A stretch of DNA of 62,291 bases, the filler included. It is 4 parts of 4 records of this genome, joined end to end, with 100 filler letters (N's around TTAATTAATTAA, not from the genome) between each part and the next. Parts side by side here need not be neighbours in the genome. Positions count along the whole stretch, not along the records: positions 53,499 to 62,291 come from SRR31156797_4752; 3 more parts are not named here. One strand, written 5' to 3'. Positions within the stretch are counted from its first letter, which is position 1. Every line of letters starts with the position of its first letter. The position numbers were made by a program, and so were the translations under genes. The notes below the pieces were generated by a model. It had not been told where the DNA came from. It made no database searches and saw nothing but the letters and a program-made list of their open reading frames with translations. Below are positions 43,851 through 62,291 of this stretch, one piece after another.

Positions 43851-43880
43851 AAAAAAAAGTCCTTGAATTTCAAGGACTTT
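43851..43880. terminator. Intrinsic terminator after pfk
   Basis: AAAAGTCCTTGA/TCAAGGACTTTT. Confidence 0.8.
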
Positions 43881-43906
43881 AGTTAATATAAATTTTAAAA
43901 TAGTTT

Positions 43907-45921: not shown

Positions 45922-45987
45922 ATTAATTAGTATTATTTTTATTGATATGGTATAATTGCTAAAATTTGTATTATAGGAGGTATATAA

Positions 45988-47100
45988 TTGAAACCAAATA
46001 GAAAACCGGAAAACCCAAATTTCTCATCAGGGCCTTGTTCAAAATTTAAAGGTTATGATGTTAGTTTGTTGAAAGATACTCCTTTTGGGAGATCGCATAG
46101 AAGTCCTTTAGGAAAAGGCAAATTAGAGGAAGCAATTGAAAAAAGTAAAGAGCTATTAAAATTACCAGCTGATTATAGAATAGGAATAGTGCCTGCCTCT
46201 GATACAGGTGCATTTGAAATGGCTATGTGGAGTATGCTGGGGCCTAAGGGTGTAGATGTTGTATGTTTCGAAGCCTTTGGTAAAGGTTGGGCAAATGACA
46301 TAACAAAAGAGCTGAAATTAGATGATGTAAGAGTATTTGACGCTGAATTTGGAAAATTACCAGAATTAGATAAAGTAGATAGTAATAGAGATATTGTATT
46401 TACATGGAATGGAACTACAAGTGGAGTAAAAGTACCTAATGGTGACTGGATAGCTAATGATAGGGAGGGTTTAACTTTCTGTGATGCAACATCTGCAGTA
46501 TTTGCTATGGAGATACCATGGGATAAAATTGATGTGTGTACATACTCATGGCAAAAAGTACTAGGTGGAGAGGGAGCGCATGGAATGCTTATCCTATCAC
46601 CTAGAGCAGTTGAAAGAATTGAATCTTATGATCCGACTTGGCCAATGCCAAAGATATTTAGAATGAAAAAAGGAAATAAACTTAACGAAGGAATTTTTAA
46701 AGGATCAACTATAAATACTCCGTCAATGTTAAGTAACGAAGATTATTTAGTTGCACTTAATTGGGCTGAGAAGCTTGGTGGATTAGATGCTATGATCAAA
46801 AAGAGTGAATCTAATTTAGCAACTGTTGAAAAATTCGTTGAGGCAAATGATTGGATTGATTTTTTAGCTGAATCAAAAGAAACGAGATCTAATTCAAGTA
46901 TTTGTTTAAAATTAGACTTAAGTAATGATAAAATTGATGAATTAGTTAAACTATTAAAAACAGAAGATGTTGCATATGACATAGCCTCGTATCGTGATGC
47001 TCCTAAAGGAATAAGAATTTGGGGTGGAGCAACTGTTGAAGCAGATGATATAGAGCTAATGCTTGAATGGTTATCTTGGGCATACGAAGAATTAAAATAA
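45988..47100 (+). CDS. serC: Phosphoserine aminotransferase (Methanosarcina/alphaproteobacterial type)
   Basis: FSSGPC, GRSHRS, DATSA, SWQK, TINTPSM, YRDAP; TTG start after GGAGG. Confidence 0.94.
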
Positions 47101-47108
47101 ATATTTAT

Positions 47109-47141
47109 AAACAGACTGGATTACGTTTCAGTCTGTTTTTT
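47109..47141 (+). terminator. Intrinsic terminator
   Basis: AAACAGACTG/CAGTCTGTTT plus U-tract. Confidence 0.85.
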
Positions 47142-47313
47142 ATTTATAAGATATTAAATTATATAATTTTGAAGAATTCCGACTTATTTTGATTTCTATT
47201 ATTTTAGAAGTGTTTTTATAATTCACTTGTATATACAAAAATATGCGTTTCATGTAAAAATGAGGTATAATTTAATAGAGACAAAAAATTATTAGCTTAA
47301 GGAGTGGGGAGAG

Positions 47314-48024
47314 ATGTTTAAGCTAAATTTTAGAGTATATGGAATTTTAAATGATTATTTACCTTTTGATATGAGGTACAGGTTTAGTAAATTAAATGTA
47401 ATCGAGGACTCTTCTGTTTCTAATTTACTATCTTTTCATGGGATTCCAAAAAAGAATATTAATCTAATAACTGTTAACGATGAACCTGTTGCTGAGAGTT
47501 ATAAAATATCTCCAGGTGATATTGTTTCTATTTATCCAAAATTCAAAAATATAGATAAAGATGTTTTATTAATAAAGTTAAGAGAGAAAAAAAAGGTTGC
47601 CAAATTTTTAATTCCAATTGAATTAAAAGATTTAGCATATTTTTTAGCTCGTTTTGGATTCGATATTAAATTTACTTCGATTTCAGAACTTGAAAATAAT
47701 TTTAATTCAAATTTATTAATAGAAAGAGTAGTTGTATTATTAAAAGGAATGAAAAAGAAATTTAATAAAATAGCTTGTAATGAAGAGATCTATTATATGG
47801 AAAGTACAGAACTTTCAAATCAGGTTAAAGAGATATTGCATAAGTTCGTACCTGATGAGTCAAATAAAATATTTGGGCACTGTGTTAAATGTGAGAAAAA
47901 ATTTGAAGAGAATGAACGTAGGAATAGAGTATTTAACTTAATTAACAGATCCAAAACCGAGGGGAAATGCTTAAAATGTAGAAGGCGCCTAAACACCAAT
48001 TCAAACGTGAACTTTTTGAACTAG
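47314..48024 (+). CDS. Ubiquitin-like domain plus degenerate Mut7-C/zinc-ribbon protein
   Basis: N-terminal LND.LP...GIP...VN...GD.VSIYP; LAYFLARFGFD; CxxC...CxxC. Confidence 0.7.
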   Translation: MFKLNFRVYGILNDYLPFDMRYRFSKLNVIEDSSVSNLLSFHGIPKKNINLITVNDEPVAESYKISPGDIVSIYPKFKNIDKDVLLIKLREKKKVAKFLIPIELKDLAYFLARFGFDIKFTSISELENNFNSNLLIERVVVLLKGMKKKFNKIACNEEIYYMESTELSNQVKEILHKFVPDESNKIFGHCVKCEKKFEENERRNRVFNLINRSKTEGKCLKCRRRLNTNSNVNFLN

Positions 48025-48048
48025 GCTTAAGCGCAAGTATTATGAGTA

Positions 48049-48495
48049 TTAAGCTCTAAATAGAGCTAAGCGACTTTTACTAACACATGCATTCCAAGAA
48101 TGTGGAATAGTAATATCAATATCAATAAAACTTCTAACAATCTCACTAAGAGATTGTTTTTCTTTTTTGAGATGATTAAGAATAAGAATAACATGTGCAT
48201 CATCAAGCTCCTCTCTTTTATGGATAAGCTGAAGAAGTTTGATTTCATATTTTTTAAGGAAATAAGAGATATCCCCTCTTTCAAAGTAATCAACAACATC
48301 AAATTTATCATTTTCTGTTGCACAAATTGTTTTATATAACTCTTTTCTCTTTAAAGCAATGCTGTAGAGAATATTTAAGACGCTATTGTCTAATTGAGTA
48401 TTTAGTATATGTGAATAGTTTTCTGAATTTCTAAATTCTGTTAATCTACTGTACATGGAAAATATTTTCATACTCTTATCAAAAAGTTTTTTCAT
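48049..48495 (-). CDS. Hypothetical helical protein
   Basis: 148-aa ORF with AGGAGG RBS; no family recognised. Confidence 0.75.
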   Translation of the reverse strand: MKKLFDKSMKIFSMYSRLTEFRNSENYSHILNTQLDNSVLNILYSIALKRKELYKTICATENDKFDVVDYFERGDISYFLKKYEIKLLQLIHKREELDDAHVILILNHLKKEKQSLSEIVRSFIDIDITIPHSWNACVSKSRLALFRA

Positions 48496-48665
48496 GATGT
48501 ACCTCCTAATGATGGTAAGACTTTAATCAAGCATACTAAATAAAACTTTCAGCTTACAAAAAATAAAAGTAAAGCTGAGTTTTTAAAAGTTATAGTTTAT
48601 AACATGATTTAGTTTGCTTGATTAATATATGAGATGATGTTTCCGTAAAAAAAAGAACGATCAGA

Positions 48666-48884
48666 TTAAATTAATTGATCTAAACGAATATCTAAAGCTT
48701 CAGTGATTGCCACAAAACAATCAAAGTTTAAGCTCTGATCCTGACTTTGTTTTTCCATTTTATATAAAGTTGATTTTAAAGCTTTTGGGGTGTAATTTAT
48801 TGTACGTGCAAGCTCAGTTAGTGATATATTTCTTTCATTTGCGATATCGATAATTTTTTTAGCTAATAAAACTTGATTTAACAT
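48666..48884 (-). CDS. Small Cro/XRE-like HTH protein
   Basis: ERNISLTELARTIN...ITEALDI..DQL pattern; AAGGGTG RBS; divergent from CI-like gene. Confidence 0.7.
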   Translation of the reverse strand: MLNQVLLAKKIIDIANERNISLTELARTINYTPKALKSTLYKMEKQSQDQSLNFDCFVAITEALDIRLDQLI

Positions 48885-49129
48885 TTAAATCACCCTTTCC
48901 GTTTTTTTTCGAACTTCTTGATATAAGTGTATATCAAAATAAGAAAAAATGCAAGAATTATTTCCGAAAAAAAAAAGATTTTTTTTGAAATATTCGGAAA
49001 AAAGTAGTATAATAGTCTTGAAAGAAAGATAAATAAGGGAAAACTCAAATGTTGTATATGTTGAATTTAGTGTTATTGTTTTGCATTTTAATGCTATTAT
49101 ATGAATATAAATTGAATTAAGGAGGAAAA

Positions 49130-49855
49130 ATGGAAAGGTACGGAGATTTTTTCAAAGAACTTAGAACTAAACGTGATTTAACATTAATGGAATTATCGAA
49201 AAATTCCGGTGTATCAAAATCATATCTGCATGATATAGAGAATGAAAAAATTATACCCTCTGATAAAATAGTAAAGAAGCTTTTGGAATATTATAAACTT
49301 AGCTCAGATGAAGAGGATAATTTACGAAGAATACTTGCTTTTGCAAAAACTCCTGATATAGTAAAACAGGAGTTAGCTAAAGTACGAGGAAAATTAGATG
49401 TAATGGCCAATCAGATCAAAAAATTTGAACGTTATCAAAGTATAGAGAGTAATGTTGATTTTGTTGCAAATGATGAATATACTGAATTACCTGTTTACTC
49501 ATATGCAAGAGCAGGTTTTACTGATTTTGGTAACTATCCTGAACCGCAAGAATATATGAATATTCCATTACCAAGTGTTAAAGGTGATGTAGTGGGTATA
49601 GAAGTAAGAGGGGATAGTATGGAACCTAAATTTCATCAGGGAGATATTTTGATTGTAAAAATAGGTATTATGCCTCAAAATCGTGATATAGGGGTATTTA
49701 TCGTTGATAATACAACTGTAGTAAAAGTATATAATAAGGATAAAAGTGGAAGAATTATTTTAACAAGTCTAAATATTGAGCATGAGCCGATAATTGTAGA
49801 TGCGGAAACTGAGTTTCATATTGTAGGAAAATTCTGGAAAGCTATAGTTAGTTAG
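49130..49855 (+). CDS. XRE HTH + S24 peptidase repressor (CI/LexA-like)
   Basis: HTH SKSYLHDIE, cleavage site RAG, catalytic GDSMEP and VVK; AGGAGG RBS. Confidence 0.93.
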   Translation: MERYGDFFKELRTKRDLTLMELSKNSGVSKSYLHDIENEKIIPSDKIVKKLLEYYKLSSDEEDNLRRILAFAKTPDIVKQELAKVRGKLDVMANQIKKFERYQSIESNVDFVANDEYTELPVYSYARAGFTDFGNYPEPQEYMNIPLPSVKGDVVGIEVRGDSMEPKFHQGDILIVKIGIMPQNRDIGVFIVDNTTVVKVYNKDKSGRIILTSLNIEHEPIIVDAETEFHIVGKFWKAIVS

Positions 49856-49859
49856 TATA

Positions 49860-49922
49860 TAAATCAAAAACCATAAAAACTCTTCGATATAAAGTCGAAG
49901 AGTTTTTATGGTTTTTGATTTA
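49860..49922. terminator. Perfect 28-bp inverted repeat, probable bidirectional terminator
   Basis: 49860-49887 is the exact reverse complement of 49895-49922. Confidence 0.8.
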
Positions 49923-50256
49923 AAGCTTTGAGATGACTTGATTCAAAAAAGGAAAAAAGAAGAAAGGAAACTTTCTTCTTTTTAATAGAGTGTATGTATG
50001 TGTCAATATATTAAAAGGATAATAGTAAATTGTTTGGAGACTGTCTCTACTATCCATATATTGTTTTTTTAGAGTGACGCAAGGTAATTGAGAAGAGAGA
50101 TAATGCGCCACTCACTTTGTATAACCAAAAGGTTATACAGAGGTTTGTATAGTATACGAAAAATTTGTATTAATTTAAGTATTTCTTTGTCTAAATTTAC
50201 TTCAATAATCTCGATACATTTTAAGTAGTTTAATATTTGCTCAGAATTTAACCAAA

Positions 50257-50307
50257 TTACTTTTTAGTTGTTTTGTTTCTTTTCCATAAGAATCTTTTTC
50301 TGCTCAT
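50257..50307 (-). CDS. Small basic peptide, 16 aa
   Basis: MSRKRFLWKRNKTTKK; AGGAGG 7 nt upstream; consensus promoter upstream. Confidence 0.55.
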   Translation of the reverse strand: MSRKRFLWKRNKTTKK

Positions 50308-50370
50308 TTTTTAACCTCCTCATATGTTAATTGTCGATTAACTACTTGAACAGTGATTTAACTTTGGTAA

Positions 50371-50399
50371 ATTATACTGTATAAGAATTAATCTGTCAA
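50371..50399 (-). promoter_or_regulatory. Consensus sigma70 promoter
   Basis: TTGACA-17-TATAAT on minus strand. Confidence 0.8.
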
Positions 50400-50533
50400 G
50401 AACTTTTTTTGATACAATAAAACATTTTTAACTTAAACCAAACATTGTGTTCAAATTAGTATAAAACTACTAGTACAGTAATGTGAAACATAATTTAATA
50501 TTTCTACAATAATTTGCTAATAAAATTCTAGTT

Positions 50534-50632
50534 CTATTTTGAGTAGTTTTGCGAAGTTATCAGTGAAAAAGAATCTTTTTTAGATTGCCAAAATGGTTTT
50601 TCTTTACGCCATAAAACAGTTTCTCTATTCAT
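50534..50632 (-). CDS. Small basic peptide, 32 aa
   Basis: MNRETVLWRKEKPFWQSKKDSFSLITSQNYSK; GGAG 8 nt upstream; TTGATT-17-TATAAT at 50702-50674. Confidence 0.5.
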   Translation of the reverse strand: MNRETVLWRKEKPFWQSKKDSFSLITSQNYSK

Positions 50633-50879
50633 TGCCTCTACTCCAATCGTTTTATTATATTTAACTTAGTCTTATTATACTTAAAAACAAAACAAAAATC
50701 AAGTAAAAACTTTAAAAATGATCAAAAAAATATCAAAAAAGAATCAAAATTTAAACTTAAGCATTATATCATTCTTTTGAAAATAGCTGAAAAATTATAA
50801 AAACATTAATTTTACTAGCTTTTTTCCATGATATTAAGTATAATAGTTTTAGGAAAAAAAGTTTATGTTGGGGGAATTT

Positions 50880-51533
50880 ATGAAAATATTGATAGATGAA
50901 GAGCGAAAATTGCACCCTTATCTTGAAGGGATGAAAAATATTGCAAAGGGAATATATATGATGCTGGGTACGAAGTGTGAAGTGATATTACACGACTTGA
51001 GTAACCCGGAAAGTTCACTGGTGTTTATTGCCGGTGAAATTACAAATAGACAATTGGGAGCACCTGCAACAGATGTTATGTTAAAAGCTCTCAGAACTAA
51101 GCAACCTGAAGATCTTTTGAATTATCAAACGAAAAGTAAAAATGGACATACATATAAATCTTCAACAATGTTCTTAAGGAATGAAAATAATGAAGTTATA
51201 GGTTGTTTGGGTATAAACTACGATATTACTGATATGATGCTGGTTAATAGTGTTATTGGTGAATTTTGTCAGGTTTCTAATAAAGAAGAGGAGAAAGCTG
51301 AAGAGGAAACATTTGCGAATAACGTAAATGAAGTACTAAAAGAACTTTTACAGCGTTCAAAAGACATTATTGGTAAACCGGTGCCGTTTATGAATAAAGA
51401 TGATAAATTAAAAGTAATAAAGTACCTCGACGAAAGAGGAACTTTTATGATAAAAGGCGCTGTAGAGATTGTTGCAGATGACTTAAGAGTGTCGCGATAT
51501 ACGATATATAATTATTTAAAAGAAATTGATTAG
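50880..51533 (+). CDS. YheO-like PAS_6 / HTH_22 transcriptional regulator
   Basis: CEVILHD, KSSTMF, GCLGINYD, VSRYTIYNYL. Confidence 0.92.
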   Translation: MKILIDEERKLHPYLEGMKNIAKGIYMMLGTKCEVILHDLSNPESSLVFIAGEITNRQLGAPATDVMLKALRTKQPEDLLNYQTKSKNGHTYKSSTMFLRNENNEVIGCLGINYDITDMMLVNSVIGEFCQVSNKEEEKAEEETFANNVNEVLKELLQRSKDIIGKPVPFMNKDDKLKVIKYLDERGTFMIKGAVEIVADDLRVSRYTIYNYLKEID

Positions 51534-51541
51534 CATAATAT

Positions 51542-51582
51542 AAAAAGAGAGGCTTGAAATTAATCAAGACTCTCTTTTTTTT
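51542..51582. terminator. Bidirectional terminator
   Basis: AAAAAGAGAG.CTTGA/TCAAG.CTCTCTTTTT between convergent genes. Confidence 0.8.
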
Positions 51583-52234
51583 AATAAATATATTCATCTT
51601 CTATCATTACATCTTTTTTAGGAGTGAAACTTAATTTAACATTTATTTCTTTCTTTTTAAGAGATTCGATAAAATTTAATATATCTTCTTCAACTTCTTT
51701 TGTTAAAAACTCTTTTTTCTCAAGATTGAATAAAACATTATTGGGATTGAATATCAAAAATGAATTGACAGATTTTTTAATATAATAAAAAAGACTTTTG
51801 CTTATTTTCTTATCAATATCAACTAGAATTGAATCATCTTCTCTTTCGATTCGAAATCCTTCATCTTTTCGATTTTCCGGTAAACTTGAATTAATTGCCT
51901 TTAAAACTTTATCAGCGTTAATGGGTTTGATGATATAATTTTTAACTCCGTACTTTAATAATTCCAGAACAGTTCTTCTCTGATTAATTGCACTAACCAT
52001 AACAATTGAAGCCTCTGGATCATATTCAAGAATTTGTCTTGAAGCTTCTACGCCATCCATTATTGGCATTGTAACATCCATTGTTACAAGATCCGGTTTG
52101 TACTCCCTGTATCTTTGAATAGCTTCTTGGCCATCTACGGCCTCTGCGATGATAATGTGACCTTCTTTTAGTAATATTTGCTTCATATTTAGCCTCATTA
52201 TAGCGGAATCATCACAAATAAGAATCTTAGCTAT
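51581..52234 (-). CDS. CheY-like response regulator with STAS-like C-terminal domain
   Basis: ICDDS, MDVTMP, VSA, IKP receiver motifs; probable ATA start at 52234 behind GGAGG (ORF track starts at 52285). Confidence 0.85.
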   Translation of the reverse strand: MAKILICDDSAIMRLNMKQILLKEGHIIIAEAVDGQEAIQRYREYKPDLVTMDVTMPIMDGVEASRQILEYDPEASIVMVSAINQRRTVLELLKYGVKNYIIKPINADKVLKAINSSLPENRKDEGFRIEREDDSILVDIDKKISKSLFYYIKKSVNSFLIFNPNNVLFNLEKKEFLTKEVEEDILNFIESLKKKEINVKLSFTPKKDVMIEDEYIY

Positions 52235-52446
52235 TTTAATCACCTCCGAATTTTTTCTCCCTTTATTACCTATATTATAGATCAAAAAGCTAAAAAATTC
52301 AAGAAAAGTAAAAAATAATAGTAAATTAAAAACACCAAGTCAATTTTAAATTAACTTGGTGTCATATAAATTTAGTAAAAACTCATAAGTGAGCTATATA
52401 TAAGACAATACTCGGAAATAAGTGAAAAAATACAACAAGCGTCTAG

Positions 52447-53398
52447 TTAGACTGTCCTGGCACTCAATTCACTAACGTAAGTTCTCATTTCTATGAATAT
52501 AACTGGACTAAGTGCAAGCAGTGCTACTAAATTTGGTATCATCATTAAACCGTTCAACGTATCCGCTAATAGCCAGACAAAGCTAAGAGGAGCGACAGAA
52601 CCTAAGAAAACACCGAAAACCCAAAGTATTTTGTATATAATAGCAGATTTTGGACCAAATAAGAAAGCGAATGATTTTTCACCATAATAACTCCAACCAA
52701 GTATAGTTGAAAACGCAAAGAAAACTAAACCAATAGTAACTAAGTGTCCCCCAAATCCAGGTAAGCCTTTATTGAATGCTGAAGCAGTTAATACAGCACC
52801 GTTAAGCCCAGAACTCCACTGACCAGTCATGATAATAACTAATGCAGTCATTGTACAAATGATGATTGTATCAATGAATCCGCCAAGCATTGCAATTACA
52901 GCTTGTTGTCCCGGTTTCTTAACAGTTGATGCGGCATGTGCAATTGCAGCAGTTCCTAAACCGGCTTCATTAGAGAAAACTCCTCTTGCTATACCAAATC
53001 TCATCGATGACATCATAACAGCACCGGCAAAACCTCCTGTAGCAGCCTGACCAGTAAATGCACTTGAGATTATTAATTGGAAAGCCGGAATTAAAGAATT
53101 GATGTTCATGAAGATGATTAATAAAGTTCCGAAAATATAACCTATTGCCATTATTGGAACTAAAGTTTCAGCAACATTTCCGATTCTCTTAATACCGCCA
53201 ATTACAACAACAAATACTAAAATAGCTAATACAATACCAGTAACATATGTAGGTACTCCGTATGCTCCTATTGATTGAGCAACTGAGTTTGCCTGTACAC
53301 TACACCCTATTCCAAATCCTGCAATAGATCCAAAGATTGCAAATGTAGTACCAAGCCATGCCCAATTTTTTCCCATACCATTTTTGATATAGTACATT
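52447..53398 (-). CDS. Alanine/glycine:cation symporter (AlsT/AgcS family), 5' truncated
   Basis: VQANS, RGVFSNEAGLG, FIDTIIICTMT, WSYYGE, PNL. Confidence 0.95.
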
Positions 53399-53498
53399 NN
53401 NNNNNNNNNNNNNNNNNNNNNNNNNNNNNNNNNNNNNNNNNNTTAATTAATTAANNNNNNNNNNNNNNNNNNNNNNNNNNNNNNNNNNNNNNNNNNNN
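53399..53498. other. Artificial contig linker
   Basis: N run containing TTAATTAATTAA. Confidence 0.99.
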
Positions 53499-53650
53499 CG
53501 CCTCGCGAAGCGGGCATCCCTTTCGGGAGAAAGTCGGTGGAAACTTTCAATCGTCCGAGGAACGAGGACATTGAAACGTTGAAATTCAGATATCAGCAAG
53601 AACACATGTTAGCTAAAGAAATTAATTAAAACTAACAAAGCACAATTAGC

Positions 53651-53691
53651 GAATAACGAATAACAAATAACTTAATAACGAATAACTTAAC
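53651..53691. repeat. Degenerate 7-8 nt tandem array (NAATAAC)
   Basis: gaataac gaataac aaataac ttaataac gaataac ttaac. Confidence 0.65.
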
Positions 53692-53706
53692 AACAAACAA
53701 CCTATT

Positions 53707-54972
53707 CTGAAAAAACTAATTTACATACTACTTTTTATCTTAACGGGATTAACTGGATCACAGGTAAACGCTCAGCAGCGTTTCCCCAAGCCGGAGTTCG
53801 AAAGCGGCCACACCCAGCCGCCAACCCTAACCCCGGACCCGAGAAGCATTGGGTTAGAATACATGGATGTGATTGTACTTTTTGCAGCACTTGCCCTCAT
53901 CACCTGGCTGATACTGAAAAAGCGGTCGCGAAGAGGTGTATTTTGGGTATCCGTTTTTTCACTCATCTATTTCGGGTTTTACAGGCTGGGATGTGTCTGC
54001 TCTATCGGGGCCATCCAAAATGTTACGCTGGCCCTCTTTGATCCGGGCTATAAAATTCCGCTAACCGTAATTGCATTTTTTGCCATCCCGCTTTTGTTTA
54101 CCCTATTTTTCGGGCGAACATTTTGTGCAGGAGTTTGCCCGCTCGGAGCCATCCAGGATTTGGTGGCTTTCCGGCCAATTGAAATTCCGCCATGGATTCA
54201 AAAAATGTTGGGACTGATCCCCTACATCTATCTTGGACTAGCCATTTTGTATGCCGCCACAGGTACTGATTTTATTATCTGCCGTTACGATCCGTTTGTC
54301 GGCTTTTTCAGGATGGATGCCACATTCCTGATGTTTTCTATCGGCGGCCTATTCCTGATTACGGGAGTTTTTGTTGCACGTCCCTATTGCCGGTTTTTCT
54401 GTCCGTATGCTGTCTTACTCAACTTGTTGAGCAGGATATCCTGGAAACATCTCACCATAACCCCGGCTGAATGCATCCAGTGTCGTTTGTGTGAGGATTC
54501 ATGTCCGTTTGGCGCGATAGAAAAACCAGTTTCTGTTGATGTTCGCGAAAATCGGGGTAAGACCATGAAAAGGTTGATCATCACGGGTATGCTAATCCCT
54601 GTTCTGATTGGTATTGGAATTTGGGCCGGATACAGCTTTCACGAAAACCTGGCTTATGCCAATTCAAAAGTTAAACTGGCTGAACACCTGTATCTTGATC
54701 AAAGTGAAATCAGCGAAGATATCCAGGTTGAGATTGATGCCTTCAGATCCGCAGGAAAATCAGCAGAAGAACTCTACGTTGAGGCTGCTTCGATTGTTAA
54801 AGACTTTAAAACCGGCAGCATGATCCTGGGTGGATTTTTGGGTCTGGTGATCGGCATCACACTTCTAAATCTCACCCGGTTTTATCACCGAAGGGATTAT
54901 GAACCCAACAAAGGAACCTGCCTGAGCTGTGGCCGATGTATGGATTATTGTCCTGTTGAAAAGAAAAAATAA
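53707..54972 (+). CDS. Membrane 4Fe-4S protein (NapH/MauN/NosR-C-like)
   Basis: CVCSIG, CAGVCP, CRFFCP, two CxxCxxCxxxCP; frame extends from ATG 53863 up to CTG 53707, adding a signal peptide. Confidence 0.88.
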   Translation: MKKLIYILLFILTGLTGSQVNAQQRFPKPEFESGHTQPPTLTPDPRSIGLEYMDVIVLFAALALITWLILKKRSRRGVFWVSVFSLIYFGFYRLGCVCSIGAIQNVTLALFDPGYKIPLTVIAFFAIPLLFTLFFGRTFCAGVCPLGAIQDLVAFRPIEIPPWIQKMLGLIPYIYLGLAILYAATGTDFIICRYDPFVGFFRMDATFLMFSIGGLFLITGVFVARPYCRFFCPYAVLLNLLSRISWKHLTITPAECIQCRLCEDSCPFGAIEKPVSVDVRENRGKTMKRLIITGMLIPVLIGIGIWAGYSFHENLAYANSKVKLAEHLYLDQSEISEDIQVEIDAFRSAGKSAEELYVEAASIVKDFKTGSMILGGFLGLVIGITLLNLTRFYHRRDYEPNKGTCLSCGRCMDYCPVEKKK

Positions 54973-54973
54973 C

Positions 54974-57001
54974 ATGTCGCAATACAAAAAGTCAAATAAA
55001 AAGGCACGTAAAGACGTACGGACGTACGTCTCAAATAGTAATCTCTGGCGGAACATCGCAATTGTTGCCAGTTTGTTTTCTTTTGTGATCTGCATCCTCA
55101 TCATCGTCAATTATTTTCAGCTCAACCGCATCGATCCGGTTGAAACAAAAGTCATCGATGAACTTGTGAGCCGATTGAATCAAAACCCGGAAGATGATCA
55201 ATTGCGGGAGCAAATCCGCACTTTGGACCTCCTGGCGCGCAAGGCCTACTTCACCAATCAGTGGCAAATCCGAATGGGCGGCTATCTTTTGCTAATCGGT
55301 GTCCTTGTCACCATTGCCGCCTTCCAGATGCTGCTAACTGCCGAAAAGAAAAAAGTGAATCTGAAACCGGAAAGCAAAACCGACCTGATTTTCATGCAAA
55401 AACAAACCCGCGGGTGGGTAACCGGATTTAGCTCAGTGTTAATTGCAGTTACACTGATTTTTGCATTCCTCACCTACCGCCAGTTGGGTAGTAGATTTGA
55501 AAACACTTTGGCAGAGATTTCAAAAAATGAAACCGAACAGGAAAACCAGAAATCTGAGATTCTCAGTACCGGGGAACAACATAAAGTACCAGCCAATCCC
55601 GCAAAGACAATCGAAGATAAGGCCGAAACAGCAGGTTTAAATGACCGGGCTGAGCAAGAACCTGAAAAGATAAAAGAAACAGCAGTTGCTCAACCAAAGC
55701 CTGATGAAGAAAATCCCACCGCAATAGAAACCTCCAAGCCAGAAACTGAAGTAAAACCGGCAGAAAAAGCCATTCCGGATAAAACCACAAAAGCCTCAAC
55801 TTTCACCTCCGATGCACCCGGTTTTAATTACACAATTCCCTACGTTGAAAAGGTTGCCAAAAATTTCAATGCTTTTCGCGGGCCAGGCGGAAACGGCATT
55901 GCTTTCCAAACCAATATCCCGGAAAGCTGGAATGGTGAAACCGGGGAGAACATCATCTGGAAAACCAAAATCCCACTGAGTGGGTTTAATTCACCTGTGG
56001 TCTGGGATGATAAGATTTTCCTTACCGGAGCCGATAAATCGACCAAGGAGGTCTATTGTTTTGATTGTGAAACCGGCGAAATTTTATGGACAACAAAAGT
56101 TTCGGGCATTCCGGGATCACCGGAAACGGCGCCCAAAGTTCCGGATTACACTGGCTATGCAGCGCCAACCGGAACCACGGATGGCAGGTATTTTTACGCC
56201 ATCTTCGCTGATGCCGATGTTGCGGCTTACGATTTTGATGGCAACATGGTCTGGGGGAAAAACCTCGGCGTACCAGAAAATCATTATGGGTATTCTTCTT
56301 CATTGTTGGTTTATAACGGCAAACTGATCATCCAGTGGGACCAGCGCAATGTGCAGAAAGTGATGGCGTTAAATACCGAAAATGGTGCACTTGCCTGGGA
56401 AACAAACAGGGAGGTAAAAATCTCCTGGGCATCACCAGTTATCGCCGAAATGGCATCCGGCCCACAACTCATCCTTGCGGCCGATCCACTCGTAATTGCC
56501 TACAATCCGGATTCCGGAGAAGAGCTCTGGCAACTCGATTGTCTGTCAGGGGAGGTCGGGCCCTCGGTAGCTGCAAATACAAAAATGGTCTTTGCCCTGA
56601 ATGAATACGCCAGCCTTGTCGGCATTAAGGTTGGAGATCAGCCCGAAAAAGCCTGGGAGGATTACACCTACCTTTCGGATGTGCCGAGCCCGGTGGCAAC
56701 TGACAAACATTTGATCGTTTCCACAAGTTACGGTTTAATCACCTGTTTTGCCACCGAAAGCGGCGAAATGCTCTGGGAGGCCGAATTCGACAATTCCATT
56801 TACGCTTCACCAATGCTTGTTGATGGAAAAATCTACCTGATTGATAAACAGGGTGTAATGCACATTTTTAAACCAGGGGATGAGTACCAACACATTGCCG
56901 ATAGCCACCTGGGCGAAGGCTCAGTTTGCACACCGGCTTTTATGGATGGAAAAATATACATTCGCGGGGATGAGCATCTTTATTGTATTGGGGAGGAGTG
57001 A
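54974..57001 (+). CDS. Membrane-anchored PQQ-type beta-propeller protein
   Basis: Three N-terminal TM segments, charged linker, FRGPGGNG and repeated SP...G..LW blades. Confidence 0.88.
   Translation: MSQYKKSNKKARKDVRTYVSNSNLWRNIAIVASLFSFVICILIIVNYFQLNRIDPVETKVIDELVSRLNQNPEDDQLREQIRTLDLLARKAYFTNQWQIRMGGYLLLIGVLVTIAAFQMLLTAEKKKVNLKPESKTDLIFMQKQTRGWVTGFSSVLIAVTLIFAFLTYRQLGSRFENTLAEISKNETEQENQKSEILSTGEQHKVPANPAKTIEDKAETAGLNDRAEQEPEKIKETAVAQPKPDEENPTAIETSKPETEVKPAEKAIPDKTTKASTFTSDAPGFNYTIPYVEKVAKNFNAFRGPGGNGIAFQTNIPESWNGETGENIIWKTKIPLSGFNSPVVWDDKIFLTGADKSTKEVYCFDCETGEILWTTKVSGIPGSPETAPKVPDYTGYAAPTGTTDGRYFYAIFADADVAAYDFDGNMVWGKNLGVPENHYGYSSSLLVYNGKLIIQWDQRNVQKVMALNTENGALAWETNREVKISWASPVIAEMASGPQLILAADPLVIAYNPDSGEELWQLDCLSGEVGPSVAANTKMVFALNEYASLVGIKVGDQPEKAWEDYTYLSDVPSPVATDKHLIVSTSYGLITCFATESGEMLWEAEFDNSIYASPMLVDGKIYLIDKQGVMHIFKPGDEYQHIADSHLGEGSVCTPAFMDGKIYIRGDEHLYCIGEE
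55008..55033 (+). repeat. GTAG-type REP-like palindrome inside CDS
   Basis: GTAA-AGACGTACG-GA-CGTACGTCT; related copy at 57141-57168. Confidence 0.65.
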
Positions 57002-57140
57002 TGAAAATAGAAGTTTGAATTTAGAAATTAGGTAATAGAAATCATTTTAAATTTGAATAGAATGACAGTATCACGAAAAAATGGGTCAGGCAATTCGTCT
57101 CAACGAGATAAACTCAAACTTTTAATAAAATAGAAAACAT

Positions 57141-57168
57141 GTAAAGACGCACGGCCACGCGTCTCAAC
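57141..57168 (+). repeat. GTAG-type REP-like palindrome
   Basis: GTAA-AGACGC-ACGGCCAC-GCGTCT-CAAC. Confidence 0.65.
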
Positions 57169-57197
57169 GAGTTGAAAAACTCAATAACTTAACAACC

Positions 57198-59546
57198 ATC
57201 AACGAAGAAATTCAAAATATCACCGATAAGATTGTCCGAAACCACGGAACCGAAACCAGCGCTGCGATCCCGATCCTGCAGGAAATCCAGAAGGCTTTTA
57301 ATTACCTGCCGGAGGAAGCCCTGAAAAGGGTCTGTGAAACCACGGATATTTCTCCGGCGCAAATCCGGGGTATCTCTACATTTTACACGCAGTTCAGGCA
57401 CCGGCCGGTGGGATTGCACATGATCAAGGTTTGTGTGGGCACGGCCTGCCATGTGAAAGGGGCCATGCTCGTGTATGACGCTTTTAAAAGGCACCTGAAG
57501 CTGGAAGGCAATGATGATACCGATGCCGAAGGATTGTTTACACTAGAAAAAGTTGCCTGCCTGGGCTGCTGCACCATCGCCCCGGTCGTGCAGATTGATG
57601 ATGTGACTTACGGCCATGTCACCACCGAAAAAGTACCTGAAATACTGGAGGATTTTTTGCATGGAGGAAAAGATAATGAATCAGGACATCAAAAACAGTC
57701 AGACAAAAACCAGCCTGTTCAGGGTGAGATACGCATCGGTCTGGGCTCGTGCTGTATTGCCAGTGGAAGTGCCGAAGTAAAAAAAGAGCTGGAGAATTCC
57801 ATAGCCCGTTCGGGGATCAACGTTGAAGTGAAGCATGTGGGGTGCGTGGGAATCTGCAACCAAGTGCCACTGCTGGAAATCCACAAACACGACGAAAATC
57901 CGGCTTTCTATGCTAAAATAAAACCAGAAGAAGTAAGTGCAGTGGTCAGCAGACACTTCAAAGCTGCCGGGCCTTTGCAGCGATTGAAAAACAATGTGTT
58001 TTCGATGGTTGAAAAAGTGGTGCTCAATGACACACCGCGACAAGTAAAGAGATATGATTTGGATGTCCCGGAAACGCCTGTTACAGATTTTCTGGCCGGA
58101 CAAATGAATATTGCAACCGAATTCCGTGGCAACATCAAACCCTCTGATTTTGATGAATACCGAAGGTTGGGCGGTTTTGATGCATTGAAAAGATGCCTGA
58201 CAGAATATACACCGGATAAGGTTGTAGATATTGTTCTGGAGTCAGGGTTGCGCGGACGGGGAGGTGCGGGTTTTCTTACCGGCCAGAAATGGCAATTTGT
58301 GCATTATGCCAAAGCTGAAACAAAATATGTAATCTGTAATGGCGATGAAGGCGATCCAGGGGCATTCATGGACAGGATGCTGCTGGAATCCTACCCCTTC
58401 CGGGTCATTGAAGGGATGATCATTGCGGCTTATGCTGTAGGTGCCGGCGAGGGTGTAATGTACATCCGGGCCGAATATCCGCTGGCGGTTTCGAGGATTA
58501 AGGAAGCGCTGAAAGTGCTGGAAGATAAAGACATTCTTGGTCAAAATATTTTCGGGACGGATTTTTCCTTCCGGATCAAGGTTTTTGAAGGGGCTGGTGC
58601 ATTCGTTTGTGGCGAAGAAACTGCGCTGATATCATCCGTGGAGGGACAACGCGGTATGCCCAGGATCAGGCCTCCCTATCCTTCAGATGCGGGATTATAT
58701 AGTAAGCCTACCCTGATCAATAATACGGAAACCTTTTCGATAGTTTCATGGATCATCCGTAATGGAGCGGAGAAACTCAACAGCATCGGTTCGGAAAGAA
58801 GCAAGGGGACCAAGGTGTTTGCCCTGGCAGGCAAAATCAACCGTGGGGGGCTCATTGAGGTGCCCATGGGCATTACGATCCGGGAGATCGTTGAGCGTAT
58901 AGGAGGCGGCATTCCCAACGGGAAAAAATTTAAAGCCATCCAGATCGGAGGCCCATCGGGTGGATGTATCCCGGCGGAACTGGCGGATACTTGCATCGAC
59001 TATGAATCACTCACTGAGGCCGGTGCAATGATGGGTTCCGGCGGTTTGATCGTTCTGGATAAAACCGACTGCATGGTGGATATTGCCAGATACTTCCTGG
59101 CATTCACGCAGGATCAGTCCTGTGGAAAATGTACCTTTTGCCGCATCGGTACACGAAAAATGCTGGATATTCTCAACAGGATTTCAATCGGTAAAGGGAA
59201 ATTCAGCGACCTCCATCAACTGGAAAAACTGGCAGAACAAATACAAAAAGGAAGTATTTGCGGACTCGGGAAGACTGCCCCTAATCCGGTGCTTTCAACG
59301 CTAAGATATTTCCGGCATGAATACGAGGAACATCTCAACGGTCGATGTCCAACAGGGAAATGTAAAGAGATGATTACCTATGACATTACGGATGACTGCA
59401 CCGGGTGCACTAAATGCGCCCAGCGCTGCCCTACTGATGCCATAGAGCTTCGCCCTTACGAAAAACATGAAATCGACACGGAGCTTTGTATCAAATGCAA
59501 TATCTGCCGGGAGATATGCCCTGTGGATGCTGTAATTACCAGGTGA
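57198..59546 (+). CDS. Fused NuoE/HydC + thioredoxin-like 2Fe-2S + NuoF/HydB flavoprotein with C-terminal 2x[4Fe-4S]
   Basis: In-frame AIPILQEIQ..YLP..TFYTQF upstream of 57408; CVGTAC/CLGCC; GRGGAGF, DEGDPGAFMD, GEETAL, GGPSG, SCGKCTFC; exact start uncertain. Confidence 0.92.
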   Translation: MNEEIQNITDKIVRNHGTETSAAIPILQEIQKAFNYLPEEALKRVCETTDISPAQIRGISTFYTQFRHRPVGLHMIKVCVGTACHVKGAMLVYDAFKRHLKLEGNDDTDAEGLFTLEKVACLGCCTIAPVVQIDDVTYGHVTTEKVPEILEDFLHGGKDNESGHQKQSDKNQPVQGEIRIGLGSCCIASGSAEVKKELENSIARSGINVEVKHVGCVGICNQVPLLEIHKHDENPAFYAKIKPEEVSAVVSRHFKAAGPLQRLKNNVFSMVEKVVLNDTPRQVKRYDLDVPETPVTDFLAGQMNIATEFRGNIKPSDFDEYRRLGGFDALKRCLTEYTPDKVVDIVLESGLRGRGGAGFLTGQKWQFVHYAKAETKYVICNGDEGDPGAFMDRMLLESYPFRVIEGMIIAAYAVGAGEGVMYIRAEYPLAVSRIKEALKVLEDKDILGQNIFGTDFSFRIKVFEGAGAFVCGEETALISSVEGQRGMPRIRPPYPSDAGLYSKPTLINNTETFSIVSWIIRNGAEKLNSIGSERSKGTKVFALAGKINRGGLIEVPMGITIREIVERIGGGIPNGKKFKAIQIGGPSGGCIPAELADTCIDYESLTEAGAMMGSGGLIVLDKTDCMVDIARYFLAFTQDQSCGKCTFCRIGTRKMLDILNRISIGKGKFSDLHQLEKLAEQIQKGSICGLGKTAPNPVLSTLRYFRHEYEEHLNGRCPTGKCKEMITYDITDDCTGCTKCAQRCPTDAIELRPYEKHEIDTELCIKCNICREICPVDAVITR

Positions 59547-59575
59547 GGTAACCAATTTATGGATTAAATCGTAAC

Positions 59576-61141
59576 ATGCAAATAACAATAAACCATAAAA
59601 CCATTTCCATTCCAGAAGGAACCACAATTCTGCAGGCTGCCAGTACCGAAGGAATCAAGATTCCAACCATGTGCTATGGCCATGATGGCTATCACAACCA
59701 TCCATCCTGCATGATTTGCGTGGTGAAGGAGTTGAAGTCGGGCAAATTGTTGCCGGCATGCGCAACCAAGGCAATGGATGGCATGGATATCCTAACCCAC
59801 GACAAAGAGGTGATTGAAACCCGAAAAGAGTCGCTGGAACTTTTAATCAGCGATCATGTTGGCGATTGCGAGGCCCCATGCCGTATTGCCTGCCCTGCTT
59901 TTATGGACATTCCAAAGATGAACCGCCTGATTGCCGCAGGCAGATTTTCTGATGCGCTGAAAGTTGTAAAAGAGGAAATTGCCCTTCCATCTATCCTTGG
60001 ATATATTTGCCCCGCACCCTGCGAAAAGGTTTGTCGCCGCAACCAGACCGACCAGGCTGTTTCGATTTGCCAGCTTAAGAAGTTTGTTGCCAATCAAGAC
60101 TATAATTCCAAAAAACCCTGGTTTCCAGAAAAAGAAAAATCTACAGGAAAAAAGATTGCAATTATCGGATCGGGGCCGGCCGGCCTGGCGTGTGCATTTC
60201 ATCTTGTAAAATCAGGCCATCGTGTCATCGTTTATGAAAAGGAAAACAAGGCCGGTGGGAACCTGCTGAAAATCCCGGAATCAGAACTTCCATCCGAAGC
60301 ACTGCAAATTGAATTAAACTGGCTGGAAAAGTTCGGGGTTGAATTCCACACAGGTGAAACGATAACACAAGGCATGTTCCTCTATCAATTCACTGCCGAG
60401 TTTGATGCAGTGGTTGTTGCAACTGGAGCTACAGATGCCAATGTACCTCACTTCCTCGGACTGGAATATCATGCATCAGGCCTGATTGCCGATCCGGAAA
60501 CATTTGAAACCCGGCACGAAGGTGTTTTTGCCTGTGGCAGTATCATCCGTGAACAAAAGATGGCGGTGAAAGCCCTGGCGCAGGGCAAAGCGGCAGCAAA
60601 AAATGTGAATAAATATCTGGCCGGTGAAAAGGTTGAAATGGCCGTGAAACAGTTTAATTCAAAATTTGGTAAGCTGCAACCTGATGAAGTTCAGGAATAC
60701 CTGAAAGAAGCTACTGATGATGGACGCTTTGAGCCCGTATCAGGCAACCTGCCTGGTTTTACTGATAAAGAAGCAAAGACCGAGGCAGCAAGATGTATGC
60801 ACTGCGATTGCAGGAAAGTGGATAACTGCAAGTTGAGAATTTACAGTGACGAATACAAAATCGATCGCCGAAAGTATTTGGGATACGAGCGGAAAACAAT
60901 CAAAAAATATTTTACCCACGAATCCATTGTTTATGAACCTGAAAAATGCATCAGATGCGGATTGTGTGTGGAGATAACAAAAGCTGAAAAAAATCTGGAA
61001 GGATTAACCTTTATTGGCCGGGGTTTCGATGTTAAAATTGATATCCCATTCAACGATCGGCTGGAAAATGCGTTAAATACTACAGCACTCAAATGTGCTG
61101 AACTTTGTCCCACCGGGGCAATCTCCGAAAGGAGGCTTTAA
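59576..61141 (+). CDS. NuoG/HydA-type Fe-S subunit with inserted, shortened GltD-like FAD domain (StnC-like)
   Basis: N-terminal 2Fe-2S, CEAPCRIACP/ICPAPCE, GSGPAG, CMHCDC, CIRCGLC, CAELCPTGA. Confidence 0.88.
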   Translation: MQITINHKTISIPEGTTILQAASTEGIKIPTMCYGHDGYHNHPSCMICVVKELKSGKLLPACATKAMDGMDILTHDKEVIETRKESLELLISDHVGDCEAPCRIACPAFMDIPKMNRLIAAGRFSDALKVVKEEIALPSILGYICPAPCEKVCRRNQTDQAVSICQLKKFVANQDYNSKKPWFPEKEKSTGKKIAIIGSGPAGLACAFHLVKSGHRVIVYEKENKAGGNLLKIPESELPSEALQIELNWLEKFGVEFHTGETITQGMFLYQFTAEFDAVVVATGATDANVPHFLGLEYHASGLIADPETFETRHEGVFACGSIIREQKMAVKALAQGKAAAKNVNKYLAGEKVEMAVKQFNSKFGKLQPDEVQEYLKEATDDGRFEPVSGNLPGFTDKEAKTEAARCMHCDCRKVDNCKLRIYSDEYKIDRRKYLGYERKTIKKYFTHESIVYEPEKCIRCGLCVEITKAEKNLEGLTFIGRGFDVKIDIPFNDRLENALNTTALKCAELCPTGAISERRL

Positions 61142-61152
61142 TTTATAAGATA

Positions 61153-62277
61153 ATGAAAAACATACGTTTAATAAAACCAGTATTGGTCGTTGCATTTTTT
61201 ACTGTCCTGATGGGAAACAGTGGAGTAGCGCAAACCAAAACCTGCTGGCCTAACTTCAGGGGAAATGCAAGTCTTTCCGGCGTTGCCGAAGTTAAACTTC
61301 CTGAAAAGGTTAGTCTGGTATGGAGTTTCAAAACTGAAGATGTGATTAAATCATCACCCATCATCTGCAACAACACAGTTTTTGTAGGTTCGAATGACGG
61401 ATACATTTATGCCCTGGACACAAATGGCAACCTCAAATGGAAATTCAACACAGAAACCTCTGTCGAAGCGCCTCCGCTTTACCTTGATGGCAAAATTTAT
61501 GTTGGATCATTGGAAGGAGTTTTTTTTGCAATTGATGCTGAAACCGGGGATTTAATCTGGAAATACATGACCGACGGACAGATTTCCGGTGCAGCCGGAT
61601 GGGCAACGGACGAGGATGGAAAAAAAATGATCTTTGTTGGGAGCTACGACTTTTTCCTGCATGCGCTGGATGCGGAGACTGGCAAGCTCATCTGGAATTA
61701 CGAATCCGATAACTACATCAACGGAGCGCCAGCCACTGATGATAGATCTGTGGTTTTTGGAGGCTGCGACGGCCATCTACATTTTGTGGATATAAAAACT
61801 GGAAAAATAAAAGAAAAAATAGAAGTCGGAACATACATCGCATCCTCAGCCGCCATTACAGATAAAATGGCTTTTGTTGGAGATTACGACGGTGGATTTC
61901 ATGGAATCAGCCTGGCAAAAGGCGAAATACGCTGGAGGCATGAAAATGCAGGAGAGATTATGGGAGCCCCTGCAGTTTCAGGAAAGCATGTTGTAATCGG
62001 CACCAGGAAAAAGGATGTACTCTGTTTCGATATAGCATCCGGAACAGTACTCTGGAAATATAAGGCCCTGGGAAAGATTGAAAGCTCTCCTGTGATCAGT
62101 CAGGACAAAGTAATCGTTACCTCGCTTGATGGAAGGGTTTATTTCCTGGACCTCAAATCCGGAGAAAAGACGTTCGAGTATGAAATCGGCAGCCCAATGT
62201 TTTCAACACCAGCGGTGATTGATGGGTTGATTGTAGTTGGTGCCGAGGACGGAGGTGTTTATGGGTTGACGTGGTAG
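61153..62277 (+). CDS. Exported PQQ-type (BamB-like) beta-propeller protein
   Basis: Signal peptide ending GVA-Q, WPNFRG, eight SSP..VGS.DG..W-like blades. Confidence 0.9.
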   Translation: MKNIRLIKPVLVVAFFTVLMGNSGVAQTKTCWPNFRGNASLSGVAEVKLPEKVSLVWSFKTEDVIKSSPIICNNTVFVGSNDGYIYALDTNGNLKWKFNTETSVEAPPLYLDGKIYVGSLEGVFFAIDAETGDLIWKYMTDGQISGAAGWATDEDGKKMIFVGSYDFFLHALDAETGKLIWNYESDNYINGAPATDDRSVVFGGCDGHLHFVDIKTGKIKEKIEVGTYIASSAAITDKMAFVGDYDGGFHGISLAKGEIRWRHENAGEIMGAPAVSGKHVVIGTRKKDVLCFDIASGTVLWKYKALGKIESSPVISQDKVIVTSLDGRVYFLDLKSGEKTFEYEIGSPMFSTPAVIDGLIVVGAEDGGVYGLTW

Positions 62278-62291
62278 AGATACATTTGTAA

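Follow-up and report, generated by a model that had tools for sequence, protein, structure and literature searches.

A Bfu-family iron-sulfur core with a pared-down NfnA/StnC-like subunit and its possible connection to a NapGH-like membrane relay and periplasmic propellers in Bacteroidota

What does an electron-bifurcating enzyme do once the site for its third substrate has been lost? In every Bfu-family enzyme studied to date, to our knowledge, the substrate that joins NAD and ferredoxin as the third is a defined one, such as H2, formate or NADPH. The question is raised by a stretch of 62,291 nucleotides (hereafter the window) joined from four contigs, the last of which (SRR31156797_4752; positions 53499-62291, 8.8 kb, GC content 44-48%) is filled by a cluster of five genes on the + strand, p1 to p5. 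They encode a NapH-like membrane polyferredoxin (p1), a membrane-anchored propeller (p2), a fusion of BfuC and BfuB (p3), a minimal relative of NfnA/StnC (p4) and an exported propeller (p5). A first-pass annotation, made from the sequence alone, had proposed an undescribed redox system here, in which a bifurcating core is linked to a membrane polyferredoxin and two propellers of the pyrroloquinoline quinone (PQQ) type. The five co-oriented genes that it described are present and mostly tightly spaced, three of the four gaps measuring 1-29 nt (p1/p2 1 nt, p3/p4 29 nt, p4/p5 11 nt) and the p2/p3 gap 196 nt. We tentatively read the locus as a new Bfu-family variant joined to a NapGH-like transmembrane Fe-S relay, which would connect the NADH and ferredoxin pools to the periplasm and in which the propellers would be non-catalytic, and we regard this composite reading as somewhat less than evenly probable.

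There are strong grounds for assigning p3 and p4 to the Bfu family. By the account given in PMC9304861, where the family is defined, BfuB combines the NuoF flavin mononucleotide (FMN), SLBB, NuoF 4Fe-4S and dicluster domains, BfuC is a NuoE-like thioredoxin-fold [2Fe-2S] protein, and BfuA must carry one [2Fe-2S] and one 4Fe-4S domain as a minimum. The product of p3 (57198-59546, +; 782 amino acids) begins with a NuoE-like [2Fe-2S] domain (PF01257), that is, a BfuC part fused to BfuB, and continues through a thioredoxin-like four-Cys site into NuoF and a C-terminal 2x[4Fe-4S] domain, with the full BfuB set of PF01512 (NuoF FMN), PF10531 (SLBB), PF10589 (NADH_4Fe-4S) and Fer4_21/Fer4_7 (dicluster); p4 contains the BfuA minimum in Fer2_4, Fer4_20 and Fer4_Nqo3. 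Every motif that the annotation had quoted for the NuoF part (GAFMD, GTKVF, GGPSG, H-x4-CP-x3-C and two C-terminal ferredoxin motifs) is present in the p3 translation, which scores below the cut-offs of the NCBIfam NuoF and NuoE models. Its best solved relatives (640-682 bits) are the Caldicellulosiruptor NfnB chain 9bov_B (682 bits), NfnB 9n5u_B, StnB 8oh5_B and HydB 7q4v_B, those from Nfn and Stn scoring 666-682 bits.

The length of p3 depends on its start. The frame is open upstream of the listed GTG at 57408 and there encodes the conserved N-terminal NuoE/BfuC domain, the ATC at 57198 aligns with ATG in eight relatives and with TTG in two, and the closest relative has the same ATC start (L001:2340); we therefore take ATC 57198 as the start of a complete 782-amino-acid BfuC-BfuB fusion. 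L-numbers here and below denote the 80 loci, from 118 matched stretches, of a genome scan with p3, and our core set comprises the 13 of these with a p3 identity of at least 57% (57-86%) and in the same BfuB clade as the window. The H-x4-CP-x3-C motif is the B2 site, now assigned as a Zn site, and its His is described as kept in nearly all bifurcating BfuB proteins and missing from non-bifurcating homologs (PMC9304861; PMC11829005). In p3 this His and its partners (H642, C647 and C652, numbered from GTG 57408) are invariant in all 12 full-length orthologs, and so are the four NuoE-type Cys, the thioredoxin-like site, the NuoF cluster and both C-terminal ferredoxin motifs. Judged by these sequence criteria, p3 is a bifurcating-type BfuBC protein, in line with the HydB/BfuB features that the annotation had ascribed to it.

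Compared with its solved relatives, p4 (59576-61141, +; 521 amino acids) is pared down. It runs from an N-terminal [2Fe-2S] site through two GltD-type [4Fe-4S] sites, a Rossmann domain of the flavin adenine dinucleotide (FAD) type and a four-Cys cluster to one NuoG-N4-like cluster (Pfam: Fer2_4, Fer4_20, FAD-type Rossmann, Fer4_Nqo3), and the best solved matches are again Nfn and Stn subunits (291-332 bits), with which it shares the wire of [2Fe-2S], two GltD-type and NuoG-like clusters beside a BfuBC-type core. Using phmmer against the NfnA chain 9bov_A, p4 residues 2-288 align with chain residues 5-290 and residues 275-516 with 425-671, so that the alignment skips the second Rossmann fold (9bov_A residues 290-425); the StnC chain 8oh5_C is likewise matched in two pieces. 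An AlphaFold2 model of moderate confidence (predicted local distance difference test, pLDDT, 71.1; predicted template modelling score, pTM, 0.63) has the same chains among its top Foldseek matches (9bov_A, 8oh5_C and 9n5u_A; TMq 0.52-0.53). The earlier description of p4 as StnC-like thus holds, and these alignments indicate that p4 derives from NfnA/StnC.

The pared-down form is shared by all relatives that we compared. When 12 p4 orthologs are set against the two full-length NfnA-like proteins of L031 (967 amino acids) and L071 (1031 amino acids), in all 12 about 140 residues carrying the second dinucleotide-binding GxGxxA motif are missing, the chain ends just past the NuoG-like cluster motif with no FdhF-like half, and ACGS replaces the GD motif of the FAD domain. 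The last ferredoxin-like domain of p4 retains only CxxCxxC...CP, the ligands for one cluster, as at NuoG N4, whereas its counterpart in Nfn/Stn has ligands for two. Taken together with the fusion of BfuC to BfuB, and with a membrane Fe-S protein and propellers as neighbours, the loss of the NAD(P)H Rossmann subdomain and of the FdhF-like half sets the cluster apart from NfnABC and StnABC (9bov, 9n5u, 8oh5). The best 120 clusters of p4 relatives listed at 90% identity are of similar size (454-561 amino acids, mostly 515-530; 53-88% identity to p4), and their names include 'FAD-dependent oxidoreductase', 'glutamate synthase beta subunit-like' and 'NAD(P)-binding'.

The missing parts have defined roles in the solved enzymes, as far as these are set out in PMC10482914 and PMC11829005. 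In StnC, residues 102-565 form a GltD-like part, whose two Rossmann folds accommodate FAD and NADPH, and an inactive FdhF-like part spans residues 683-1172 (PMC10482914); in the Csac NfnABC enzyme electrons are described as passing along FAD-A7-A6-A3-A2-A1, with A4 and A5 off the path (PMC11829005). Mapped onto p4, the NADPH site and the off-pathway clusters fall in the parts that are absent (PMC10482914; PMC11829005), which suggests that the on-path wire and FAD-type domain survive in p4 and that the nicotinamide site has been lost together with the off-path parts. In both Stn and Nfn the FdhF-like half mediates tetramer formation (PMC10482914; PMC11829005), and in Csac Nfn the FdhF-like domain also helps to hold the N-terminal domain of NfnC (PMC11829005). 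In the present cluster the loss of this domain coincides with the covalent joining of BfuC to BfuB, and the two events may be linked.

The annotation had noted that a hydrogenase or formate dehydrogenase gene next to the cluster would speak against a new system. Searched with tblastn, the 13 core loci and the window contig (191,293 bases in all) yielded no match for the H-cluster, Mo-pterin, the NADPH subdomain or the Fdh-like tail, while the same queries matched 38, 23, 5 and 29 of the 80 loci, respectively, none of them in the clade. The cluster thus differs from HydABC, with which it has the BfuBC core in common, in having no H-cluster domain in p4 or the 13 core loci, and Pfam did not detect Fe_hyd_lg_C in the five window proteins. 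Nor did a NiFe domain appear in the partial Pfam scans made on the flanks in L017, L063, L053, L064, L003 and L021, no query aimed at the NiFe large subunit having been used. The 67 non-core loci have other partners: the open reading frame matching the p4 N-terminus could be Pfam-scanned in 59 (one fragment was dropped, and seven gave no match, mostly at contig ends), and it proved to be an [FeFe]-hydrogenase HydA in 36, a Mo-pterin protein in 19 and a full GltD/Nfn-type protein in four. The claims that H-cluster and Mo domains are lacking are therefore borne out; the description of the core as being 'without catalytic subunit' needs qualification, since the counterpart of the NADP-binding subunit of Nfn and Stn is there, as p4, and it is the nicotinamide Rossmann subdomain and FdhF-like half of this subunit that have been deleted.

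The gene set itself is conserved beyond chance, the same genes occurring in the same order in related loci. Among the core loci whose contigs reach far enough, p4 follows p3 in 12 of 12, p5 follows p4 in 11 of 11, p2 precedes p3 in 11 of 12 and p1 precedes p2 in 10 of 10; the single exception, L064, is discussed below. This arrangement persists at p3 identities from 57% to 86% although the outer flanks differ, and the loci belong to Lentimicrobiaceae, Rikenellaceae, other Bacteroidales, one unclassified Bacteroidota and one member of the Chitinispirillales. In a quick BfuB tree of 77 rows (LG+G4; branch support by the Shimodaira-Hasegawa-like approximate likelihood ratio test, SH-aLRT, only; four loci with a BfuB of less than 450 amino acids were dropped), the 14 rows to which p4-like genes are linked group in a single clade (SH-aLRT 100), which adjoins two Nfn-type rows with a support of 93 at a fork that is drawn open. 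No relative of p2 or p5 is found in the 67 non-core loci, and only L045 has a weak p1-like match, of 25% identity and on the other strand. Of the checks that the annotation had named, the synteny search thus shows the genes to co-occur elsewhere, and the tree places the NuoF fusion in this clade.

Unrelated genes are inserted within some of the clusters with the order kept, at L003:5392-6552 (-), L003:10776-11258, L021:10805-11176 and L016:9174-9545; among their products are a DUF4143 AAA ATPase, a DUF6036 nucleotidyltransferase and a PDDEXK_3 nuclease. Elsewhere in the scan, NuoF is fused straight to a complete GltD-like FAD/NADPH module (L028:10279-13389, Paludibacteraceae; L066:1-2457, Dehalococcoidia), which is a different joining of the same two parts.

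On the membrane side of the locus, p1 (53707-54972, +; 421 amino acids; Pfam Fer4_5, Fer4 and Fer4_7) has a signal peptide and about seven transmembrane (TM) segments, six strong and one weaker in hydropathy, and its CTG start aligns with ATG in all six relatives compared. It bears two CX3CP and two CxxCxxCxxxCP motifs, which, like 15 of its Cys, are invariant in nine sequences. We take a NapH/MauN-type protein to be marked by a polytopic membrane architecture with paired CX3CP and paired [4Fe-4S] motifs, and by a ferredoxin exported by the twin-arginine translocation (Tat) system as partner. The motifs are all present in p1, and the partner is visible in relatives, where a polyferredoxin of 194-219 amino acids with a twin-arginine signal (of the SRR type in L063, L021 and L053) lies directly before p1; in the window the contig ends there. 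This Tat-signal protein is probably the NapG/NosG/MauM-like periplasmic partner of p1. Pairs of the NapGH, NosGH and MauMN kinds are known to work for enzymes of the periplasm, and these include propellers, e.g. NosZ and the MauB heavy subunit.

The similarity of p1 to NapH/NosR-type proteins is weak, its scores of 44.2 bits on TIGR02163 (cut-off 213) and 43.6 bits on NF007013 (cut-off 234) lying far below those of the NapH/MauN models. Hydropathy and the positive-inside rule would place the CX3CP and ferredoxin motifs on the cytoplasmic side, with C96 and C98 (a CxC pair) and C192 in periplasmic loops, and they predict a TM hairpin with a periplasmic helical insert of about 60 residues that parts the ferredoxin motifs. 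This split, together with the signal peptide and the extra TM segments, distinguishes p1 from NapH, and the cluster contains no catalytic gene of the Nap, Nos or Mau systems. A profile search of the PDB for solved relatives of p1 matched only the generic ferredoxin motif, and the ESM Atlas returned only the generic name '4Fe-4S binding protein'.

From these elements we propose the following scheme. By homology, p3 and p4 would form a Bfu-family module of the HydABC/NfnABC type, working in the bifurcating or confurcating direction, with NADH binding at the FMN of p3 and ferredoxin docking at its C-terminal 2x[4Fe-4S] domain. Mid-potential electrons would run along the Fe-S wire of p4, which retains the on-pathway NfnA/StnC clusters; as the nicotinamide subdomain is deleted, NADP(H) is presumably not the third substrate, and the cytoplasmic Fe-S domain of p1 may take its place. 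In turn, p1 would pass electrons to or from the Tat-exported NapG-like ferredoxin, so that the cytoplasmic pools of NADH and ferredoxin would be linked to the periplasm, where p2, p5 and the two or three propeller paralogs of the relatives would most likely be non-catalytic scaffolds or substrate-binding parts. The suggested hand-over from p4 to p1 and on to the NapG-like ferredoxin draws on synteny and on the absence of another third site, and the coupling across the membrane on the same synteny, on the Tat-exported ferredoxin beside p1 and on a weak structural prediction for p1 and p2. On thermodynamic grounds, a bifurcating core would call for a third couple near -400 mV; alternatively, an old confurcating architecture may have been reused as a sink for NADH and ferredoxin.

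The structural prediction needs to be read with care. Multimer modelling, which the annotation had recommended, was run on the p1-p2 pair only (p1 residues 23-421 with p2 residues 1-185; three runs, three controls, no custom alignments) and gave scores of 0.59, 0.58 and 0.60 (median 0.59; best control 0.00), a verdict of weak support, with at least 79% of contacts shared between runs and a partner pLDDT of at least 68. The mark used was passed by 51 of 78 solved complexes and by 2 of 108 mismatched pairs, and scores of 0.60 or less came from just five of the 78 solved complexes and from all four passing mismatches (of 180). The prior for a p1-p2 contact is moderate, the genes being adjacent and 1 nt apart, and the prediction would raise the odds of such a contact only modestly.

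Several points weigh against the proposed scheme. The sole complex prediction covered p1 with p2, and a verdict of weak support is more often wrong than right unless the pairing is likely beforehand. Binding of FAD by p4 is uncertain because of the ACGS in place of the GD motif and the moderate pLDDT of the model. All 13 core loci were found via p3, so that the synteny sample is narrow, with 12 loci from Bacteroidota and one from Fibrobacterota. The latter, L064 (Chitinispirillales), keeps p3-p4-p5 and the glycosyltransferase gene that follows them, and the gene immediately before p3 is there a radical-SAM gene. Our searches of the 14.3 kb of L064 revealed neither p1 nor p2, so the membrane part need not lie beside the core. 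In the window, neither the NapG-like gene nor the glycosyltransferase gene can be seen, as the contig breaks off on either side. Moreover, the propellers have no conserved metal or cofactor ligands from which a periplasmic redox chemistry could be named, and a conserved glycosyltransferase gene together with transporter genes downstream of p5 is left unexplained by a Bfu core connected to the membrane. It is these unexplained genes, and L064 with neither p1 nor p2 adjacent, that keep other explanations alive.

The best of these is that p3-p4 is a self-contained soluble enzyme, either with a cytoplasmic third substrate that reacts at an exposed flavin or cluster in p4 or acting as an NADH:ferredoxin oxidoreductase, and that the NapGH-like pair and the propellers are a separate system, merely syntenic with it in Bacteroidota. 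L064 fits this explanation, as do the inserts in L003, L016 and L021, which show that the cluster need not form a single tight operon, and the solved Bfu enzymes named in PMC10482914 and PMC11829005 are all soluble complexes. However, the exported p5 remains beside p4 even in L064, the gene order has been held over the whole range of p3 identities despite differing outer flanks, and a p4 that has lost its nicotinamide subdomain offers no recognizable site for a small molecule. We consider a purely soluble enzyme unlikely, though it deserves to be kept in mind.

The proposed membrane-linked scheme leaves the propellers in a supporting role, and their sequences are consistent with this. The p2 product (54974-57001, +; 675 amino acids) consists of three TM segments, a low-complexity linker rich in E, K, P and T and a C-terminal PQQ_2-type propeller (Pfam PQQ_2, 9.5e-24; hydropathy), and in 11 orthologs conservation is highest not in the propeller but in the first of the predicted periplasmic loops, which joins TM1 to TM2. 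In the ESM Atlas, p2 received only the generic name 'BamB family', with look-alikes from Bacteroidota and Planctomycetota. The p5 product (61153-62277, +; 374 amino acids; Pfam Beta-prop_ACSF4, 256 bits, and PQQ_2) is a propeller behind a signal peptide, as in its orthologs; there is no lipobox in the window protein, and the L064 copy may carry one. An AlphaFold2 model of p5, built from eight sequences, has eight blades (pLDDT 87.9, pTM 0.86), and its closest Foldseek matches, designed proteins aside, are YxaL (TMq 0.80-0.82), tetrathionate hydrolase (0.80) and BamB (about 0.72-0.78). The fold thus resembles BamB and YxaL, which are eight-bladed PQQ-like propellers without PQQ. What separates the cluster from BamB proper is that it has several paralogs, one of them with a 3-TM anchor, and that the equivalog model TIGR03300 (cut-off 285.2) gives 177.5 for p5 and 63.3 for p2.

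Further genes surround the five, and the annotation's warning that the contig start and window end might hide some proved apt: both ends of the contig are assembly breaks, and the relatives carry additional cluster genes, which were not found on the other three contigs of the window. In all seven loci with sufficient reach, the stretch upstream of p1 encodes the NapG-like protein, an NHL-like propeller and a further two or three exported propellers of the PQQ_2 type. The NHL/DUF5128-like propeller, six-bladed, 320 amino acids long and with an N-terminal anchor (L063:4670-5632, L017:4687-5649, L053:4842-5825), is encoded between the upstream propellers and the NapG-like ferredoxin and contains a CGCCNPS motif, which could be a metal or cluster site. 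Among the upstream propellers of L017, and only there, lies a gene for a Cys-rich membrane protein of 169 amino acids with no family match (L017:2640-3149). Downstream, a family 4 glycosyltransferase (GT4) gene follows p5 in all eight loci with reach, L064 included; in five loci (L017, L021, L023, L053 and L063) an ATP-binding cassette (ABC) ATPase gene comes next, and in four of these (all but L053) an FtsX permease of about 1,100 amino acids.

These neighbours suggest another explanation, namely an envelope-biogenesis or maturation system in which the BamB-like propellers, the GT4, the LolD-like ABC ATPase and the large FtsX are the main actors and the Bfu core with its NapGH-like relay supplies reductant, e.g. 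for thiol or cofactor maturation. The regular presence of the glycosyltransferase and the frequent presence of the ABC and FtsX genes argue for it, and so do BamB being among the nearest natural folds of p5, the invariant Cys in the predicted periplasmic loops of p1 and the 242.7 bits that the ABC ATPase scores on the LolD model. That score is below the cut-off of 307.75, however, no BamB, LolD or named glycosyltransferase model reaches its curated cut-off (indeed, no cluster or flank protein tested reaches any curated NCBIfam cut-off), a low-potential bifurcating core would be an unusual source of electrons for housekeeping reduction, and the present data identify no client protein. We regard this explanation as improbable.

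Least of all do we expect the propellers to be PQQ or metal dehydrogenases that oxidize a periplasmic substrate and send electrons inward through p1 to be bifurcated to NAD+ and ferredoxin, for although Pfam reports PQQ_2 and partial PF01011 matches and Bfu enzymes are described as reversible (PMC9304861), the PQQ dehydrogenase model TIGR03075 (cut-off 480) gives only 89.1 for p5 and 38.9 for p2, TIGR03074 (cut-off 832) only 40.2 for p5, no PQQ dehydrogenase is among the Foldseek matches listed for the eight blades and roughly 350 mature residues of p5, and the invariant Cys and His residues come to C221 and C307 with no His in p5 (numbered from TTG 61105) and to one His and two Cys in p2. As a label for the repeat family, then, the annotation's term 'PQQ-type' is apt, but the sequences lend no support to PQQ or metal enzymes.

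Some features of the contig bear on how the genes are expressed and delimited. The most likely start of p2 is ATG 54974, 1 nt past the p1 stop (the open reading frame listing offers GTG 54929), and that of p5 is ATG 61153, 11 nt past the p4 stop (alternative TTG 61105). A G-poor leader of AATAAC-type repeats precedes p1 (53640-53706, +), as read from the sequence, and a similar AATAAC-like or CTAACTTCTAAAAT-like leader precedes p3 at about 57180-57197; comparable repeats lie before p3 in Lentimicrobiaceae-like relatives (L002:995-1034, L003:7038-7077), and the leaders before p1 and p3 may be a feature of translation initiation. Near the contig start, a 34-nt element with palindromic ends (CTTTCAAT...ATTGAAAC; 53544-53577) has no Rfam match and was rejected as a repeat, being single-copy within the window; no Rfam family reached the gathering threshold on this contig.

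The remaining contigs (1-25225, 25326-38177 and 38278-53398) are joined to each other and to the last by N44-TTAATTAATTAA-N44 spacers at 25226-25325, 38178-38277 and 53399-53498, and gene adjacency across these spacers has no biological meaning. Their genes are of a housekeeping kind. The first contig encodes two huge proteins with type IX secretion C-terminal sorting domains (1979 amino acids, 3673-9609, -; 1107 amino acids, 17564-20884, +), which fits an origin in Bacteroidota. On the second, a methyl-accepting chemotaxis protein with a dCache_3 sensor (34030-35913, -) adjoins a multi-PAS protein (36110-38173). The third, with genes for phosphofructokinase, shikimate kinase, an MMPL transporter, Ppx/GppA and an alanine symporter, has a GC content of 27-36%, compared with 39-49% in the other three, and may come from another organism in the bin.

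How new, then, is the system? Literature word searches that paired propeller or periplasm with Bfu, NapH or NuoF terms returned no paper describing the cluster, and in the main text of PMC9304861 the words 'propeller' and 'PQQ' each occur 0 times. By sequence the cluster has the BfuBC core, but it lacks two defining domains of Nfn/Stn and the H-cluster of HydABC; p1 is NapH-like in its motifs and not by the curated models, and the propellers fall short of the PQQ dehydrogenase and BamB models. The lineage of its BfuB may nevertheless have been catalogued, as PMC9304861 places Bacteroidetes members among the 'Nfn' BfuB proteins of its clade 53 and p3 may stand under that label.

The cluster represents a conserved and apparently abundant lineage in which the site for the third substrate has been removed from an Nfn-type subunit and BfuC has been fused to BfuB. 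For annotation, this means that domain-based surveys may count p4-type proteins as Nfn although the NADPH subdomain is missing. Should the proposed coupling be false, the question with which we began stays: what a bifurcating core does when it has no recognizable third site. Should it be true, the cluster would provide a membrane-linked Bfu complex built solely from Fe-S proteins, and a partner for the long-unexplained cytoplasmic clusters of NapH-like proteins. A bolder version, which we put forward as a conjecture of low probability, is a cytochrome-free outlet made entirely of Fe-S proteins: the confurcating core would oxidize NADH and reduced ferredoxin jointly, in the manner of HydABC, and in place of H2 formation the NapGH-like relay would feed a periplasmic assembly organized by the BamB-like propellers and, from there, an acceptor outside the cytoplasm, for which sulfur species, humic quinones or a partner organism are candidates. 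If true, such an outlet would constitute a new electron sink for fermentative Bacteroidota of anoxic digesters and sediments.

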